Part shown: in pieces, positions 437 through 13,109 of the stretch
Numbering within the stretch: position 1 is the stretch's first letter
Layout of the letters: each line of letters opens with the position of its first letter
Source: a virus
Direction: 5' to 3' (one strand)
Virus genome (UHGV): UHGV-0136760
DNA length: 15,014 nt
Program-made: the position numbers and the translations under genes
Notes under the pieces: model-generated
Databases searched by the model: none
Told to the model about the DNA's origin: nothing
Seen by the model: the letters and a program-made list of their open reading frames with translations, nothing else

Positions 437-677
437 AGTGTGACTCCTTGCATCTGGAGCCGCCGCAAGCTGTTCCACGGCTGGTGGCGGCGCAATACAG
501 GCTGGAACACCGTGAGTCACCGGGGGCTTTCAGCCACCCATATTGCGCCGCCATAACTATGACGCGGGCAATATTACAAAACTTAATAAGATTTGTCTCG
601 TTTGATTCGACGGTGCCAACCGACTAATAGGAATTTACTTAAAACTAATTTGTAGATCAACTAAAACTGTTAGAAAA

Positions 678-1283
678 TTAAGGTGTCAAATCAAGCGCCA
701 TCTTATAGAGCGTCATTTGGTCGGCATTGTGCCGTATAAAATCACTCTTACCGCCTACCTTTCCATCAGCATGAACGGGTACCAGCCAGGGATACTGTGT
801 CCGGACTTCTGCTGGCGCTGCATGTTGGTGATGCCATTTGCACAAAGGGAGGACATATTTATGTGCATCTGCGACTGTCCTGCCAAAAATGTGATGCAGG
901 GAGATGTGTGGACTATGCTTGCCATGCAACTGGCACGCAATACACGGTAAGGTGGCAATGGCACCCTGTATTCTGCGTTCTTCCGCTGTCAGTGAGCGCC
1001 CTTTTAGTCCGCGTGATGCACGTTTGGTTACTGCCACCTTTTTTACTTCCCCGGCAGAAGCCTTGCTCATAGCTTTCTCTTTTCGGCGTTCCTCTGCCTT
1101 CCTGACTGCTTCAATTTTTTCCTGACGATATTCAGGTGAAGCCAATTTTTCACGTGTGCGCTGATACTGGCGCTGTGCTCTCAAACGCTGTTTTTCCCGT
1201 TGTGATTCTCTCCACTCAGGATCGGACAATTTCTGTAGCGCTTTCTGGCGCTGCTTTTCCCACAGAGACAGTTTTTCTTTCAT
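678..1283 (-). CDS. HNH endonuclease, Ref-like (phage P1 recombination enhancement function family)
   Basis: 201-aa ORF. The N-terminal half is a highly charged K/R/E/Q-rich region; the C-terminal half carries an HNH/zinc-finger signature (CIACQLHGKHSPHISLHHIF ... LPLCKWHHQ). Assignment by motif recognition only. Confidence 0.65.
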   Translation of the reverse strand: MKEKLSLWEKQRQKALQKLSDPEWRESQREKQRLRAQRQYQRTREKLASPEYRQEKIEAVRKAEERRKEKAMSKASAGEVKKVAVTKRASRGLKGRSLTAEERRIQGAIATLPCIACQLHGKHSPHISLHHIFGRTVADAHKYVLPLCKWHHQHAAPAEVRTQYPWLVPVHADGKVGGKSDFIRHNADQMTLYKMALDLTP

Positions 1284-1330
1284 AGCGATACCTGGTTATT
1301 CATACGAGGACACTATGATTGATCGAATTC

Positions 1331-1358
1331 GTTAGAAATTCAAAATTGAATTTCTAAC
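1331..1358. promoter_or_regulatory. 28-bp palindromic operator-like site (GTTAGAAATTCAA-AA-TTGAATTTCTAAC)
   Basis: Perfect 13-bp inverted repeat arms with a 2-bp spacer, in the intergenic region between the divergent Ref-like gene and the rightward operon. A TTGAAT -35-like hexamer (1346-1351) lies inside it. Confidence 0.5.
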
Positions 1359-1403
1359 ACATTTTGGTAGTCTTTGCGCATTGCCTTCATTCGGGAGAAC
1401 ACA

Positions 1404-1556
1404 ATGCTGATTGTTTTGAGTGCGCTACACCTTCCGCCTCTAACTGACACCACCCTGTCTCATGGTCTGCTTTTGTTAGCGCTGGCACTTTTTGAACTTG
1501 GGATTGAGCTTTTTGCTTTGACGCTGTTTTTCGTAACGATGCTGGAGAAATTCTGA
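1404..1556 (+). CDS. small hydrophobic membrane peptide (50 aa)
   Basis: ATG at 1404 with a GGGAGAA Shine-Dalgarno 4-5 nt upstream. Almost entirely hydrophobic sequence (LLLLALALFELGIELFALTLFFV). Its stop overlaps the next start (TGATG). Confidence 0.4.
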   Translation: MLIVLSALHLPPLTDTTLSHGLLLLALALFELGIELFALTLFFVTMLEKF

Positions 1557-1849
1557 TGGCACGTGCTTTGAAGTTTTATATCGCTGGCCCCATGACTGGC
1601 TACCCTGATTACAACCGCGCAGCGTTCGATGCTAAAGCCAAAGAGCTTACGGAGCAGGGGTATACCGTAATTAACCCAGCCATGTTGCCGAATGGGCTTA
1701 CCCAGGCTGAATACATGGATATTTGCCTGGCGATGGTTCGTTCAGTTGATGCGGTGTATTTACTTAAAGGCTGGGAGGGATCCGCAGGAGCGCGGGCAGA
1801 GTACGCGCTGGCTGAAAAATTAGGCCTGATGACTGAGGTGGAGATATGA
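1556..1849 (+). CDS. DUF4406-like protein (nucleoside 2-deoxyribosyltransferase-like fold)
   Basis: N-terminal FYIAGPMTGYPDYNRAAF motif typical of DUF4406 / deoxyribosyltransferase-like proteins. GGAGAAA Shine-Dalgarno; its stop overlaps the downstream start (ATGA). Confidence 0.6.
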   Translation: MARALKFYIAGPMTGYPDYNRAAFDAKAKELTEQGYTVINPAMLPNGLTQAEYMDICLAMVRSVDAVYLLKGWEGSAGARAEYALAEKLGLMTEVEI

Positions 1850-2490
1850 GCAACCGTTTTTACATGTTGTGCCTTCGTGAAACGGTCGGTAATAACGCCT
1901 CATTCCATTGCCACAACGGTTATGGGTACAGTTCGGATATTGACCGCGCACATGTTTATACACGGGAAGAAGCCCAGCAGGAGTGGGAACGAGGACGAGA
2001 CATTGATCAGCCTGTTTGCGCTGATAGCGTGGATGCAATGGCTGTGTGGCACGTTGATTGCCAGTACATCCCTACAGAAAGCCTGATTGAGTCAGATTGC
2101 ACTGCGTATGTGGCCTACAAAAAAGGTAGCTGGAACGGCAACGATGTTTACTGGCTTCAACACGGTGGATTGCCAACAGATGACTTCAGTAAAGCGACCA
2201 TCTTTAGCGTCGCCAACAAAAACGAACCAGGAATAGTTTGGTTGCCATTTTCCATTGCTGATGCAGCAAAGCGCCGGACGTTCAATATCAATAACTTTAA
2301 CCGCAGAACAATGGTTCAGGGCGCAGGTTTAGTGATGCCTGAGTGGTTAAAAAAACAGAACAGACGAAAGGAATCACGTAGCGGTAAGGTGCGCTGGAAC
2401 TGTCCGTATTGCGGAAAAATCACCTGGCAATACAGCCCATATGATTTTGAAGGATGTCGTGATTATAACTGCGAAGGGTGGATGCAATGA
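1846..2490 (+). CDS. hypothetical protein with C-terminal zinc-ribbon (CPYCG...C..C), paralog copy A
   Basis: 214-aa ORF translationally coupled to the DUF4406 gene. C-terminal CxxC...CxxC motif. Near-identical paralog at 4590..5234. Confidence 0.65.
2005..2273 (+). repeat. 269-bp segment identical to 4749..5017 (core of duplicated gene)
   Basis: By-eye comparison of the two paralog genes: this core appears base-for-base identical, while flanking parts of the same genes are clearly diverged. Confidence 0.75.
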
Positions 2491-3149
2491 CGAAATACTA
2501 CCAGCGAATCGACGGCACAGAATTTAGAAATGTATGGGTAGTAGGCGATCTGCATGGCTGCCACACGCTGTTAATGAATGAGCTGGACCGCGTTGGCTTT
2601 AACCCGGAATGTGATTTGCTCATCTCTGTGGGTGATCTTATTGATCGTGGTCCTGAGAACGTTGAGTGCCTGGAGCTTTTACAGATGCCCTGGTTCAGGG
2701 CAGTAATGGGAAACCATGAGGATTTAATGCTCGACGGTATATCGCCAACGGGGAGTGTAACGAACTGGTTGATAAATGGCGGCGGTTGGTTCTACTCGCT
2801 GGATACGGATAAAAAAGCACTTGCTATGTCGCTGGTGGAACGTGTCAGACAGTTACCGTACATCATAGAGTTGAAAACCACGTCAGAAACTATCGTGATC
2901 GCCCATGCTGATTATCCGGACGGAGAATATCAATTTGGGAAGCAGGTGCCTTTTTTCACTGTTATGTGGGGCAGGGAACGCATCAGTGAGTCTATAGACG
3001 GCATCGGTGGAGAAATAGCAGGTGCTGACAGATTCATCTTTGGTCACTCACCTGTAAACATGCCTAAAACCTTCTGGAATCAGCACTACATCGACACTGG
3101 TGCGGTGTATTGCGGAAAACTGACGCTAATGCAGGTCCAGGGGGTTTAA
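2487..3149 (+). CDS. Ser/Thr protein phosphatase, lambda NinI (lambda PPase)-like metallophosphatase
   Basis: PPP-family metallophosphatase motifs GDLHGC, GDLIDRG and GNHE, and a length (220 aa) matching lambda phosphatase. Start taken at the ATG at 2487, which overlaps the upstream stop (ATGA), rather than the track start at 2478. Confidence 0.85.
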
Positions 3150-3165
3150 CTTTTCATGTGCCGCG

Positions 3166-3188
3166 CCGGGGAATAGCCGTGTCCCCGG
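3166..3188 (+). other. GC-rich hairpin (CCGGGGA-N9-TCCCCGG) downstream of the phosphatase gene
   Basis: 7-bp inverted repeat directly after the stop at 3149. Not followed by a T-tract, so not a canonical intrinsic terminator. Confidence 0.25.
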
Positions 3189-3223
3189 TCCGAACTATAG
3201 ATACAAAGCGCACAAACATAAGT

Positions 3224-3251
3224 GTTAGAAACTTGATTTTAATTTTCTAAC
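3224..3251. promoter_or_regulatory. second 28-bp operator-like site (GTTAGAAA-N12-TTTCTAAC)
   Basis: Same 8-bp outer arms and same 28-bp length as the palindrome at 1331-1358. Lies about 45 bp upstream of the 3295 start and overlaps a TTGATT -35-like element. Confidence 0.45.
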
Positions 3252-3294
3252 AGATTATTTTACCACTCGGAACAAAACTGAGTCGGTATCTATT

Positions 3295-4290
3295 ATGAGT
3301 GCAATTATTACCCCCTATGTCTCGCAAGAGACTGGTGTTGCAGTCTTTAAGGTAGATAAGGCCACCAGCGGCTTTATCGGTTCCGGTAGACGCTTCATCA
3401 TTTCCCCGTTACCACGCGAACAAGCAGAAAACACTGCTGATGGTATCGTAGACCTTAACTATTCGCTGGTGGCTAATGAATCCTTATCACCATTCTTCAA
3501 TAGTGAGCGTGTCTTTACCGTTCTTGGAGGCGAGGGTTCTTTAGTGTCATGGGTAAGTCGCAATATCCATGAATGCCAGGCGCATGACAAAACACTATGT
3601 AGCAACAGGTTAACTACCCATTTCCATAATGGTTCAGCCGTGCGTTTATGCTGGGATCATGACGCTGAGTACATGATGAAAGGCTACGACAAGTTACGTG
3701 ACCAACTGGCGCTTAACCGGGCCAACTGGATTATGAACTGGGCGGCTAGTGAGTTAAAACTCCCTGCTGAACGTGACCTGAGCATGGTTGAGCTTGCGTT
3801 CTGGGCTATTCGTCGCGGCCTGAAAAATGAGTTACCGGAAGAAGCCGGGCGTATCGCTTTGTGTCTGCCAAAAGATGAAATCCCTACCGGACCGCTGAAA
3901 GAGTCCGATATCACCTGGCAAAACAGTACACGTGAAATTGTGAATTTAACCGCAGAGCAGATCGTAACTATTGCCGTTGATGAAGATTCCGGCCTGCTTT
4001 ATATGCGCCGACCAAAAGCGGTCCTCGGTAAAAGCCCGGCTTATCTCCGGTTTGTGGTTTCTCGTCCGTGCATCGGATGCGGTGGCAAAGTTAACCACCC
4101 GTTCATGTACCGCGCCCGCTCGTTAAACGAACACGACCGCTGGGCTGTTCCTCTTTGCGATGACTGCGCCAGAAGCGCAGAAAACGATGTTCGGACATGG
4201 GAAAAAGCACATGGCATACGCCTTTACGTAGCCGCTAACCAGCTTTTCGACTTCGCCATTGAGCGCGGAGTGATCACGTTCAATAACTGA
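3295..4290 (+). CDS. DUF968-like (YdfU-like) phage protein with C-terminal Cys-rich HNH-like motif
   Basis: 331-aa ORF. C-terminus CIGCGGKVNHP...NEHDRWAVPLCDDC resembles an HNH/zinc-binding motif. Family assignment from memory of the DUF968 architecture; unverified. Confidence 0.55.
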   Translation: MSAIITPYVSQETGVAVFKVDKATSGFIGSGRRFIISPLPREQAENTADGIVDLNYSLVANESLSPFFNSERVFTVLGGEGSLVSWVSRNIHECQAHDKTLCSNRLTTHFHNGSAVRLCWDHDAEYMMKGYDKLRDQLALNRANWIMNWAASELKLPAERDLSMVELAFWAIRRGLKNELPEEAGRIALCLPKDEIPTGPLKESDITWQNSTREIVNLTAEQIVTIAVDEDSGLLYMRRPKAVLGKSPAYLRFVVSRPCIGCGGKVNHPFMYRARSLNEHDRWAVPLCDDCARSAENDVRTWEKAHGIRLYVAANQLFDFAIERGVITFNN

Positions 4291-4303: not shown

Positions 4304-4597
4304 ATGAGTCAAGGTAACGGTGACGGAGCTGCAAAGTGCAGAATCTCCACTTGTTTGATTAATGACAGAAAAATAGAACCGTGCGCGGCGCTGGCACAAT
4401 CTCTGGAGCAGGATGCTGAATACACGACGCGAAAAGGTCTGCTGAAATACAAAATCTATAACCATGAATTAATTCATTCACAAGACCTGATCATGCTGCG
4501 GTCTGGTGAATTTTCTAAATCGCCTATTCGAGTTTCATTTTGCCCGTTCTGTGGTGAAAGTCTGAAAACGTGGGAAGCGGAGGCAACCAGTGAATAA
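4304..4597 (+). CDS. hypothetical small Cys-containing protein (97 aa)
   Basis: ORF with cysteine pairs (CRISTC ... CPFCG) suggesting a zinc ribbon. Its 3' end overlaps the start of paralog copy B by 8 nt. Confidence 0.5.
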   Translation: MSQGNGDGAAKCRISTCLINDRKIEPCAALAQSLEQDAEYTTRKGLLKYKIYNHELIHSQDLIMLRSGEFSKSPIRVSFCPFCGESLKTWEAEATSE

Positions 4598-5234
4598 CCG
4601 CTTTTACATGATGTGCTTGCGTGAAACTGTGGGTAATAACGCCTCATTCCATTGCCATAACGGCAATGGTTACAGTTCTGATATCGATCGCGCTCATGTT
4701 TACACGCTGGAAGAAGCCCAAAAAGCCTGGAATTGTGGACGAGATATCGATCAGCCTGTTTGCGCTGATAGCGTGGATGCAATGGCTGTGTGGCACGTTG
4801 ATTGCCAGTACATCCCTACAGAAAGCCTGATTGAGTCAGATTGCACTGCGTATGTGGCCTACAAAAAAGGTAGCTGGAACGGCAACGATGTTTACTGGCT
4901 TCAACACGGTGGATTGCCAACAGATGACTTCAGTAAAGCGACCATCTTTAGCGTCGCCAACAAAAACGAACCAGGAATAGTTTGGTTGCCATTTTCCATT
5001 GCTGATGCAGCAAAGCGTCGGACGTTCAATATCAATAACGTTAACCGCAGAACAATGGTTCAGGGCGCAGGTTTGGTCATGCCTGACTGGTTGAAAGAGC
5101 AGAACAGAAGAAAGAAGTCGCGAAGCGGGAAGGTGCGTTGGAATTGTCCGCATTGCGGAAAAATAACCTGGCAGTACAGCCCATATGATTTTGAAGGCTG
5201 TAGTGATTACAACTGTGAAGGATGGCGAGAATGA
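4590..5234 (+). CDS. hypothetical protein with C-terminal zinc-ribbon, paralog copy B (GTG start)
   Basis: 214-aa ORF, same length and same C-terminal CxxC...CxxC motif as 1846..2490. The central part is identical at the nucleotide level; the ends are diverged. Confidence 0.65.
   Translation: MNNRFYMMCLRETVGNNASFHCHNGNGYSSDIDRAHVYTLEEAQKAWNCGRDIDQPVCADSVDAMAVWHVDCQYIPTESLIESDCTAYVAYKKGSWNGNDVYWLQHGGLPTDDFSKATIFSVANKNEPGIVWLPFSIADAAKRRTFNINNVNRRTMVQGAGLVMPDWLKEQNRRKKSRSGKVRWNCPHCGKITWQYSPYDFEGCSDYNCEGWRE
4749..5017 (+). repeat. 269-bp segment identical to 2005..2273
   Basis: See paired repeat feature; offset between copies is 2744 bp. Confidence 0.75.
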
Positions 5235-10784: not shown

Positions 10785-10804
10785 TACTGTATGAATAAAC
10801 AGTA
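10785..10804 (+). promoter_or_regulatory. LexA box (SOS box) TACTGTATGAATAAACAGTA
   Basis: Matches the CTGT-N8-ACAG consensus. Lies about 20 bp upstream of the UmuD'-like gene and overlaps -10-like hexamers. Confidence 0.7.
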
Positions 10805-10822: not shown

Positions 10823-11212
10823 ATGGGCTTCCCTTCTCCTGCGGCGGATTATGCAGAGAGCCGCATTTCTCTTGATCAGCAACTAATCAGACATCCTTCC
10901 GCGACCTACTTCATGCGGGCGGCAGACAGCCATCACCGTGAGGGAATATTGCAAGGTGCTTTGCTGGTGGTTGATTCCTCACTTACTCCGGTTGATGGTT
11001 CACTGCTTATATGCGCTATGGAGGGTGAATATCGCATAAAGAGATACAGGAAGTATCCGCGCCAGCACCTGGAGGATTTAAGCACCGGGAAGAAAGAGGC
11101 GTTACCAGTAGATGACGATGGATGCACGGGCAGTAATGCTGTGTTTGGTGTGATCACTCATGTCATTAATGATGCCCGAAGTGGGGAGTTTGATTATAGA
11201 CCTGTGATTTAA
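10823..11212 (+). CDS. UmuD'-like protein (S24 LexA/UmuD peptidase fold lacking the N-terminal arm; P1 HumD-like)
   Basis: Starts MGFPSPAADYAE, i.e. at the position corresponding to the UmuD to UmuD' cleavage site. Colinear with E. coli UmuD' through to FGVITHVI. GAGGTAAAA Shine-Dalgarno. Confidence 0.8.
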   Translation: MGFPSPAADYAESRISLDQQLIRHPSATYFMRAADSHHREGILQGALLVVDSSLTPVDGSLLICAMEGEYRIKRYRKYPRQHLEDLSTGKKEALPVDDDGCTGSNAVFGVITHVINDARSGEFDYRPVI

Positions 11213-11223
11213 GGCGCATAAAG

Positions 11224-11252
11224 AAGCCCGCCAGACCTGGCGGGCTTTTTGT
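11224..11252 (+). terminator. Rho-independent terminator (10-bp GC-rich stem, GACC loop, T5 run), probably bidirectional
   Basis: AAGCCCGCCA-GACC-TGGCGGGCTT followed by TTTTT, placed between the convergent stops at 11212 and 11258. The reverse strand has a T-rich tail after the same hairpin. Confidence 0.75.
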
Positions 11253-11257
11253 TGATA

Positions 11258-12352
11258 TCATTCAATGATTTTTTCGGCTGTCAGCCAGCTAATTTCGTGC
11301 CTGTCTTTCGGCGGTTTTAGCATGTGAGCATATTCAGCGACATGCTCCCACGGAATTGTTTTTGCCCACTCAACGATAGCATTGTGATCTGCAGTGAAGA
11401 GTGGAATAGTGTGCGATTTCAACCATTCTAATGTCGTGACGCCATGTTTTTTGGCGTGGTGCTGCGCATGATGCCGGGCTATCACTCGTAATGGCATTGT
11501 CCATTCACTACCATCAGGCATCGAAAAGCGCATTGTCTTCGGCATATCTGATTCAAGAACAGCCTCCCTAATACCAGGGAACTCACCAAGAATCATACGA
11601 CGATAGTCATCACTATTTCGCCCGCCATACCTTTCGGCAAAATGATCAAGATATTCTTGGGTAATAAATGGTGAATCCTCCGCACTCAGCTTAATGGCTT
11701 TATATACACCACTCGGATTATCTTCAGCTAAAGCACGTCCATGATGTGAATCATAAAAAAAGCCTATTTCCTCTGGTGACGGAATTGAAGTGAGCAATAT
11801 GCGTGAATCACCACTAGTCATGCTTGCCCACACAATGCTGTATGCCCGATCGCTGATATGTGCGGAATCCACAATAATGAATAAAAGATGGTCGGCGTAG
11901 TGACCTGCAATGCTATCTTCATAGTTAAGGCGGTAGTTACAAAAGCACATTCCCCAAAATTCATTGAACATCAGACCGCTATCACCGACCTTAAAATACT
12001 CAATGATAAAAGGTTGTTTTTTCAGCAATGCCTCCCAACATTGCCACACATATGCAACAATTCCTCTTTTGCAAACATTTGATTTTGGATAAACAATTAC
12101 TGTCCGGGAATCAGGATACATAATCGTATAAAGGGTACTAATAACAGCAAGCACTTGCGGTCGTCCGATCCCATACGGAGTGGTGACAGTAGCTTTTGCA
12201 TTATTGGGCTGTATAGCTTCAACAATTTGTTGTTGCTGGTGGCTTAAATCAATATCAAACAATTCTTTTGCTGCCAGTACCCAATTGTCTTTATATTTCT
12301 CCACCAGCGACAGCCAGCGCGGATCTTTATAAATATTGCTCTTAGTCGCCAT
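11258..12352 (-). CDS. terminase large subunit-like ATPase-domain protein (no nuclease domain)
   Basis: Start taken at the internal ATG at 12352 (MATKSNIYK...), which has an AAGGAAG Shine-Dalgarno and overlaps the upstream stop. Terminase-like motif order: P-loop-like GIGRPQ, Walker B-like LLFIIVDSAH, motif III-like LLTSIPSPEE, then YRRMILGEF. Only 364 aa. Confidence 0.5.
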   Translation of the reverse strand: MATKSNIYKDPRWLSLVEKYKDNWVLAAKELFDIDLSHQQQQIVEAIQPNNAKATVTTPYGIGRPQVLAVISTLYTIMYPDSRTVIVYPKSNVCKRGIVAYVWQCWEALLKKQPFIIEYFKVGDSGLMFNEFWGMCFCNYRLNYEDSIAGHYADHLLFIIVDSAHISDRAYSIVWASMTSGDSRILLTSIPSPEEIGFFYDSHHGRALAEDNPSGVYKAIKLSAEDSPFITQEYLDHFAERYGGRNSDDYRRMILGEFPGIREAVLESDMPKTMRFSMPDGSEWTMPLRVIARHHAQHHAKKHGVTTLEWLKSHTIPLFTADHNAIVEWAKTIPWEHVAEYAHMLKPPKDRHEISWLTAEKIIE

Positions 12353-13109
12353 CTGCCACTTCCTTAACTTCTTCTTTGGCCTGTTCTGCAATCGCCGCAC
12401 GGCATTTCGCCCTGGCTGTAGCGATTGCTTCAGCTCGCACATCGTCTGGAATCGTTGACGTGATATACATATCCAGTTCTTCGGCACGGAATACTGTTTG
12501 GTCCAGATATTCGCGTAGCATCCAGGTAAATTCGAAATCACACGCGATAATCTCTGCGCTACCTTCTGCACCATTTGGGAAATGAATAAATGCCTGTTTA
12601 GCCAAACCGATAACACGACATGCGGTTGCCAAAACAGCGACAACCAGGTTTACATTTTCACACGCTACGGGCTGATTAACGCCGGAGATTACTCCATTTA
12701 ACTGTCGGTTATATGGAAGGTAGTTTGAGATGCGTTCTACGCGCCATGTGCCAGTCAGGCTGCCATTTTTAAAGATAATTGGTGTAACGGATAGCCCAAG
12801 CTCGCGTATAAGTCGTTGCGCTATAGCAGGATCATTAAACAGGTCTAATGCTACACATTCGAAAGACTGCGCAAGGGCAAACAGTTCTTCCAGAGAGTAG
12901 TCTTTGCCCCTGGCGGTGATGTAACGACGAACGCCGCTGTCTGCATCACTCCATATAGCTACGCCATGCTCTTCATTCAGCTCTTCATTAAAGCCGAGAT
13001 ACGTCATGATAGTGCGTTCAATCGTGTCAAACGGCAGTGACATGTCGGCGTTAACAGCCACCAGCAGGCCATTACGCAAGCGGTATTGAATTGTTTTAGT
13101 GCTTTCCAT
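12342..13109 (-). CDS. hypothetical protein (255 aa)
   Basis: ORF with a GGAG Shine-Dalgarno. Acidic Ala-rich C-terminal tail. No recognised domain. Confidence 0.55.
   Translation of the reverse strand: MESTKTIQYRLRNGLLVAVNADMSLPFDTIERTIMTYLGFNEELNEEHGVAIWSDADSGVRRYITARGKDYSLEELFALAQSFECVALDLFNDPAIAQRLIRELGLSVTPIIFKNGSLTGTWRVERISNYLPYNRQLNGVISGVNQPVACENVNLVVAVLATACRVIGLAKQAFIHFPNGAEGSAEIIACDFEFTWMLREYLDQTVFRAEELDMYITSTIPDDVRAEAIATARAKCRAAIAEQAKEEVKEVADGD

Follow-up and report, generated by a model that had tools for sequence, protein, structure and literature searches.

The closest known counterparts of the site analysed here are the operators of the C1 repressor of phage P1. P1 C1 recognizes an asymmetric 17-bp consensus that occurs at 22 sites dispersed over the genome (PMC8546580), and ref is a lytic gene under its control, with a 73-fold induction on inactivation of C1 (PMC4713147). 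As annotated in the P1 record, Oref fills the spacer between the -35 and -10 elements of the promoter P2ref, and Omat lies over the ref stop codon. Oc4 is found upstream of c4-icd-ant, OrepL upstream of kilA-repL and Olpa upstream of lpa, and Oc1a-e are located at c1/coi/cre. The asymmetric unit usually stands alone (Oref, Omat, Oc4, OrepL and Olpa are monovalent), and Oc1ab is a bivalent operator of 28 bp, in which two inverted 17-bp units overlap by 6 bp and the centre is AT-rich.

The window, by which we mean the whole 15,014-nucleotide stretch of virus genome UHGV-0136760 that was analysed, is related in a mosaic fashion to Escherichia phage D6, which exists as a plasmid prophage and is itself a distant relative of P1. 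The plasmids that match the window best are about 80-93 kb in size, come from E. coli, Shigella and E. fergusonii, and carry P1-like genes in a P1-like order (icd, ref, ppp, a pdcB-like gene, hot, humD, dut and cre). Over the ref region, the window shows 98.7% identity to plasmids of Shigella dysenteriae. The leftward target gene, ref (678-1283, - strand), encodes a RecA-dependent HNH nuclease (PF16786, E = 5e-35) that is 52% identical to P1 Ref. Diverging from it is a rightward operon (1404-3149, + strand) with the same gene order as D6 orf88-orf97. The operon begins with a 50-aa ORF (1404-1556) and continues with a 97-aa DUF4406 ORF (1556-1849), a 214-aa ORF (1846-2490) and a metallophosphoesterase gene (2478-3149), all on the + strand.

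Between ref and the ATG of the rightward operon, at 1331-1358, lies the sequence GTTAGAAATTCAAAATTGAATTTCTAAC, which consists of two perfectly complementary 13-nt arms, GTTAGAAATTCAA and TTGAATTTCTAAC, separated by a central AA. The original prediction described a perfect palindrome of this kind, containing a -35-like TTGAAT, between a Ref-like gene and a rightward operon, and the window sequence agrees; the TTGAAT is in fact present on both strands, at 1346-1351 (+) and 1343-1338 (-). The window contains no other perfect inverted repeat with arms of at least 13 nt and a spacer of at most 10 nt, and in first-order Markov simulations even repeats with arms of at least 11 nt arose only 0.1 times on average. 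Exact copies of the palindrome occur in the Shigella dysenteriae plasmid NZ_CP026808 and in IMG/VR contig 2908543018_000007. With a probability of roughly 0.8, we read the palindrome as a bivalent operator of the C1-family master repressor of a D6-like phage-plasmid, placed over two divergent promoters. What the sequences show is the motif itself, its repeated presence at intergenic sites across the genomes, the agreement of its positions with those of the P1 C1 operators and its almost exclusive association with D6-type c1; C1 as the binding protein, the stoichiometry of binding, the promoter hexamers and the transcription starts are inferred.

The putative operator, of which the palindrome (without a strand of its own) would be the core, is made up of two inverted half-sites. 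The right one, AAATTGAATTTCTAACACAT (1343-1362, + strand), faces the rightward operon, scores 28.7 bits against the position weight matrix (PWM) described below and is kept in five of five aligned relatives. The left one, ATTTTGAATTTCTAACGAAT (1327-1346, - strand), faces ref, scores 18.1 bits, and is degenerate in D6 and absent from Enterobacter. Alleles of this operator are found upstream of ref in several relatives. The D6 allele (L003, 30620-30647) reads ATTAGATATTCAAAATTGATTTTCTAAC and that of E. coli TUM1586 reads GTTAGATATT..., and seven IMG/VR loci (L038, L042, L047, L048, L051, L053 and L067) share GTTAGAAAATCAAAATTGATTTTCTAAC, which is again a perfect dyad and is distinguished from the window sequence by the symmetric pair T9A/A20T. 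A side observation concerns the flank of the left half-site, where the window has an EcoRI site (GAATTC, 1325-1330) and the Shigella relative has TGTG; the EcoRI version weakens the half-site.

The half-site recurs. A search for GTTAGAAA-N12-TTTCTAAC sites had been proposed with the original prediction, which held that a lack of further genomic copies would count against an operator, and a second exact match was found within the window itself, at 3224-3251. This second bivalent operator, GTTAGAAACTTGATTTTAATTTTCTAAC, has half-sites at 3220-3239 (-) and 3236-3255 (+) and lies 44 nt upstream of a DUF968 or pdcB-like gene (3295-4290, + strand; PF06147, E = 1e-43). Orthologous bivalent sites are present in D6 (80706/80722), the Shigella plasmid (6937/6953) and the E. 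coli plasmid L001. A third locus carries a monovalent operator, ACCTTAATTTTCTAACAGTT (665-684, - strand; 24.3 bits), which overlaps the ref stop codon, is preceded by TTGACA and faces the c4/icd module; the score at its partner position is -14. The same lone site is found at the equivalent position in D6 (75977) and in the Shigella plasmid (9508).

A consensus built from all TTCTAACA sites of D6 and the Shigella plasmid describes the recognition unit as an asymmetric half-site of about 19 bp, AAATTAATTTTCTAACACA, with information peaks at TTTCTAACA and at an A..TT block 5-8 nt upstream. Scanning with the resulting PWM gave 5 half-sites at 3 loci in the window (0.4 expected from shuffles), 17 in D6 (1.65 expected) and 18 in the Shigella plasmid (1.5 expected), a test that is partly circular in that the matrix was derived from genomes later scanned with it; the same scan of 54.8 kb of P1 gave none (about 1.4 expected). 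When mapped by hand on gene tables, 16 of the 17 sites in D6 and 17 of the 18 in the Shigella plasmid are intergenic. The exact pattern GTTAGAAA-N12-TTTCTAAC is less selective: it retrieved 65 stretches from IMG/VR, only about a dozen of them D6-like contigs, and most of the 65 are probably unrelated contigs with chance matches to a 16-base pattern. Six of the unrelated low-GC viral contigs (L034, L057, L064, L070, L075 and L077; G+C about 0.36) contain 3-10 copies of GTTAGAAA/TTTCTAAC in contexts such as GTTAGAAAGTGGCG...GGTTTCTAAC that have no connection to D6; these are possibly a separate repeat family, CRISPR-like or another tandem repeat.

The places where D6-type sites occur closely follow those of the P1 operators. 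Sites are found upstream of ref, over the ref stop codon (followed by c4/icd), and upstream of icd-ant, repL and lpa. One site precedes the start codon of c1 by 12 bp, another is located between cre and the operon that follows it, and others are found at hrdC-dmt and the pdcB-like gene. The two systems have in common the target genes ref, c4-icd, repL, lpa and c1, an asymmetric unit that is usually found alone, and a total of about 17-22 sites per roughly 90-kb genome at immunity and early-gene promoters. In both, the operator lies within or adjoining the -35/-10 spacer, some sites form inverted overlapping pairs with AT-rich centres (with a 28-bp span in each, perhaps in part by coincidence), and the homologous repressor genes are located next to cre and a lox-type site. 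The recognition sequence itself differs, the core being TTTCTAACA in the D6 type versus GCTCTAAT in P1. By hand alignment in either orientation, the half-site agrees at best with 9-10 of the 17 positions of the P1 consensus ATTGCTCTAATAAATTT, and no match to that consensus with up to 3 mismatches is present in the window, D6 or the Shigella plasmid. The palindrome is therefore not a P1-immunity operator, a result that is still compatible with an operator of the C1 family.

The repressor and the motif change together. D6 C1 is a protein of 345 aa (versus 283 aa for P1 C1), encoded next to the rox/cre region. Both proteins match phrog_1678, at E = 1e-170 for D6 C1 and 1e-140 for P1 C1, and they align pairwise with 21% identity over 240 aa (E = 2e-8); judged from these matches, D6 C1 is a true homologue of P1 C1. 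Eighty IMG/VR loci were retrieved with a C1 alignment. The 17 with a D6-type C1 contain 87 D6-motif matches and 2 P1-operator matches, versus 2 and 350, respectively, in the 63 with a P1-type C1; because the loci represent two closely related lineages, this amounts to a comparison of few clades and not to 80 independent tests. Across those few clades the split is clean, and each motif almost excludes the other. Exact copies of both window palindromes are found in an IMG/VR contig that also encodes a D6-type C1 (70% identical to that of D6), and TTTCTAAC is still in use in an Enterobacter element with only 42.5% identity in C1. A profile search of genome contigs with the C1 alignment retrieved only 4 P1-like loci and no D6-like ones.

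A Pantoea element with a C1 that is 29% identical to D6 C1 contains neither the D6 motif nor the P1 motif. In this element (L014, Pantoea eucalypti pEuc3), GCAATTCTAAGGA is found ahead of c1 and again ahead of lpa, and there are two copies of ATCTAAGAGTTTTCTTAGAT; the motif positions are 16501, 22920, 26150-26169 and 27551-27570, and the palindromes have the form ATCTAAG-N6-CTTAGAT. On the basis of few sites, the Pantoea sequences tentatively suggest a third C1 operator specificity, with a TCTAA core and P1-like inward geometry.

In every relative examined, c1 lies beyond the point that corresponds to the right end of the window, about 2.3 kb past it in D6 coordinates, with dut, two small ORFs, cre and rox lying in between. 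By synteny, the c1 gene of the window's own replicon would be expected about 2 kb beyond the right end. The original prediction had placed the regulator outside the window and regarded its identity as unknown; the first part is borne out by the position of c1 in the relatives and, for the window's replicon, by synteny, and as to the second, the regulator is with good probability the C1 homologue of D6-like elements. The D6 GenBank/RefSeq record annotates no operator features, and no description of a D6-type operator was found in the literature searched, which covered motif strings and D6-like repressors, with the D6 genome paper outside its scope.

The prediction also called the palindrome a dimeric repressor operator on a promoter. 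A repressor operator on promoter DNA is very probable. The dimeric layout is not supported: among 38 strong half-sites, 23 stand without a partner that can be recognised, and the window site at 665-684 is one of these. Such lone use of an asymmetric unit matches the operators of P1 C1. The mean partner score of the lone sites at the bivalent offset was -16.5, versus -25 +/- 5.9 at control offsets, and a degenerate partner sought in this way gave no significant signal (within 1.4 sd of the control offsets). The site upstream of ref is monovalent in an Enterobacter relative, and its left arm is degenerate in D6. Taken with the lone half-sites, this argues that the palindrome arose as a lineage-specific doubling of an asymmetric site and is not a classical dimer operator.

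Where half-sites are paired, they are inverted, with their TCTAA cores 21 bp apart (about two helical turns) and their AT-rich ends overlapping in the centre. A 16-nt offset is common to every bivalent pair, the spacing being fixed in 8 of 8 bivalent loci, and conservation reaches 3 bp past each arm (TGT/ACA). If the TCTAA cores are homologous, they face outward at 21 bp in the D6 type, whereas those of P1 Oc1ab and of the Pantoea palindromes face inward at 13 bp. Given the outward cores and the 3-bp extension of conservation, the agreement of the 28-bp length with that of Oc1ab may be a coincidence. It is possible, although doubtful, that D6-type C1 differs from P1 C1 in how it pairs on DNA as well as in the sequence that it recognizes; the outward cores in 8 of 8 pairs, a C-terminal extension of about 60 aa in D6 C1 and the alleles with symmetric substitutions could be read in this way. 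If true, this would imply cooperative or dimeric binding, with one repressor pair shutting two divergent promoters together. The co-repressor Lxc has not been reported for D6-like elements (PMC6799933).

Comparison with better-known palindromic operators points in the same direction as the original prediction, which had set the site apart from the operators of lambda, P22 and 434 and from the LexA box. The operators of CI and Cro in these lambdoid phages are likewise repressor sites with dyad symmetry over divergent promoters of temperate phages. They are bound by dimers and arranged as tandem triplets at two loci, and to our knowledge a lambdoid half-site never functions alone. The sites of the window and of other D6-type elements, in contrast, are dispersed over the genome and mostly monovalent, with lone half-sites in the majority and no tandem arrays of the OR1-3 kind. 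The LexA box resembles the palindrome in being a palindromic repressor site on DNA-damage-related prophage genes, but the palindrome has no CTGT-N8-ACAG, and the only match to this pattern in the window is at 10787-10802. That match belongs to a near-consensus LexA box, TACTGTATGAATAAACAGTA (10785-10804), located 19 nt upstream of a humD/UmuD-like gene (10823-11212, Peptidase_S24); in one P1 record, the gene under a stretch matching the LexA-box region is labelled 'LexA regulated function'. Downstream of the same gene, between it and a convergent ORF (11258-12643, - strand), a G+C-rich inverted repeat AAGAAGCCCGCCAG/CTGGCGGGCTTTTT at 11221-11250 is probably a bidirectional intrinsic terminator.

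A sigma-70 consensus scan of positions 560-3400 found no promoter, so the hexamers given here come from hand reading and conservation only, with only 7-8 of 12 positions matched. The predicted rightward promoter (1346-1373, + strand) would consist of the -35 TTGAAT at 1346-1351, a 16-nt spacer containing TTCTAACACA, and a TGn (here TGG) followed by the -10 TAGTCT at 1368-1373; its D6 equivalent, TTGATT-16-TAATAT, aligns at the same positions. The predicted ref promoter (1315-1343, - strand) would consist of the -35 TTGAAT at 1343-1338, a 17-nt spacer containing TTCTAACG and the -10 AATCAT at 1320-1315. Across five elements whose flanks have diverged, conserved blocks are found at the operator and at the putative -10 region, and the block CTATGAT(T/G)GATC of the ref promoter is kept in all five. 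The conserved TATGAT at 1314-1319 (+) could also be an alternative rightward -10, placing the palindrome in the 5' UTR, and the operator would then act as a roadblock at +5 to +32. The putative Pref spacer also contains a Dam site (GATC, 1321-1324) that is invariant in five diverged D6-like elements; in P1, Dam sites are found in the regulatory regions of cre and kilA.

The arrangement of these elements suggests how repression might work. One arm together with the AT-rich centre would form one asymmetric site of about 19 bp for C1, and two such sites would sit on back-to-back promoters, each using a palindromic TTGAAT as its -35. The TTCTAAC core would fall in the spacer in both directions, 10-11 nt upstream of the -10, much as Oref occupies the P2ref spacer in P1. 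With cores inside both spacers, bound repressor would be expected to block RNA polymerase both at Pref (leftward) and at the orf88-DUF4406-phosphoesterase promoter (rightward). In a lysogen, both divergent promoters would be off, leaving ref and the early operon silent, and both would fire on inactivation of C1, for which modules of the c4-icd-ant type probably supply an antirepressor. The ref gene of P1 has a monovalent operator on a one-way promoter, whereas the site in the window would serve two divergent promoters through a bivalent operator.

The most serious competitor of the C1 reading, although itself unlikely, is that the palindrome is an operator for another dimeric DNA-binding protein, for example an Xre/HTH-type regulator. 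The perfect dyad symmetry and the single fixed spacing of all bivalent sites would suit such a protein, and D6-like genomes do contain additional annotated transcriptional regulators, but a scan of window ORFs detected no HTH repressor, and the majority of sites are lone half-sites whose partner is not recognisable. The allele GTTAGAAAATCAAAATTGATTTTCTAAC stays perfectly symmetric by means of a symmetric double change, which could reflect selection for dyad symmetry; the changed positions carry low information, however, and drift at such positions could yield the same symmetry. Furthermore, the motif switches in step with the type of C1, and its regulon mirrors that of P1 C1, including the site immediately ahead of c1.

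Less probable still is that a host nucleoid protein (H-NS, IHF or Fis) binds the palindrome, or that it serves in recombination or replication in the manner of lox/rox or cix. In favour of these readings are its AT-richness, the binding of H-NS to the 5' region of P1 ref (PMC4713147), and the 13-bp arms, which are reminiscent of lox-type sites. Conservation is strongest, however, at the specific sequence TTTCTAACA and does not follow AT-richness in general, and the motif is restricted to D6-type elements, with no occurrence in the 54.8 kb of P1 scanned. The rox region of the relatives differs in sequence (ATAACTTTAAATAAT...), and 17-18 sites dispersed over promoters are ill-suited to a recombination site.

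A hairpin in nucleic acid, either a bidirectional terminator or a 5' UTR structure of the rightward transcript, is the least credible reading: a terminator scan does flag 1331-1358 followed by ACATTTTGG, the RNA fold has -16.4 kcal/mol (z = -4.8), and the palindrome would be transcribed if TATGAT at 1314-1319 is the rightward -10, but fold stability is a trivial consequence of any palindrome, only 3 of the 12 pairs in the stem are G-C and the T-run (ACATTTTGG) is weak, a terminator is not needed between two diverging gene starts, no Rfam family matches the palindrome, the locus has a single half-site in Enterobacter and an imperfect palindrome in D6, and the same sequence recurs as a lone half-site that is unable to form a hairpin. 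A late-promoter box was also considered and rejected: the -22 box of P1 Lpa, AAGTGACT, is unrelated, and the motif is missing from several late operons, such as lydA and R/S in D6.

The lone site over the ref stop codon has a setting of its own. Downstream of it is a C4-like antisense RNA of the immI type (480-558, - strand), which matches RF01695 over the full length of the model with 38 bits (E = 2.8e-5; the gathering score is 45) and whose stem is a 13-nt perfect inverted repeat (485-497/541-553). It is followed by an icd-like ORF (251-436, - strand; 61 aa from the ATG at 436), the Shigella orthologue of which is annotated as Icd-like. Together, the C4-like RNA and the icd-like ORF form an immI-like module adjoining ref, and the order of operator (665-684), C4-like RNA and icd-like ORF reproduces the Oc4-c4-icd layout of P1. 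A second c4-icd region has been noted in D6-like plasmids (PMC6799933), and the module in the window corresponds to it.

Two further features of the window were observed in passing. The 214-aa ORF, which has a C-terminal CxxC...CxxC, occurs twice, at 1846-2490 and 4590-5234, with 92% identity over 630 bp and 198 of 214 residues identical. Each bivalent operator has one copy downstream, and the 97-aa ORFs that adjoin the copies (the DUF4406 ORF at 1556-1849 and another at 4304-4597) are unrelated to each other. The window also contains 16 Chi sites (GCTGGTGG) in 15 kb, 8 per strand, versus about 0.5 expected. They are located at 220, 234, 480, 2831, 3362, 3465, 8201, 8649, 9761, 9913, 10963, 12235, 12301, 13058, 13860 and 14144. 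Counts elsewhere are 53 in D6, 71 in the Shigella plasmid and about 45 each in the Enterobacter and Pantoea loci. Richness in Chi is a known trait of P1-type genomes, and in the window the enrichment is found alongside the RecA-dependent nuclease Ref.

The element is most likely ordinary in kind, the D6-lineage counterpart of the P1 C1 operators with a different recognition sequence and a pair geometry that may differ, and the understanding of P1-type immunity is unchanged by it. D6-like phage-plasmids are common in Escherichia, Salmonella and Shigella, a D6-type repressor is encoded by 149 PLSDB plasmids, and D6-like variants have been linked to particular types of multidrug-resistance (IncC) plasmids in Salmonella (PMC6799933). 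A predicted C1 regulon can be read from the sequence; it comprises about 13 promoter loci, among them those of ref, lpa, repL and two c4-icd modules, and the locus at ref might find use as a compact, tightly repressed bidirectional promoter/operator cassette. For the phage-plasmids themselves, the operator sequence would define which immunity the group has, and from the mutual exclusion of the motifs a specificity other than that of P1 is predicted.
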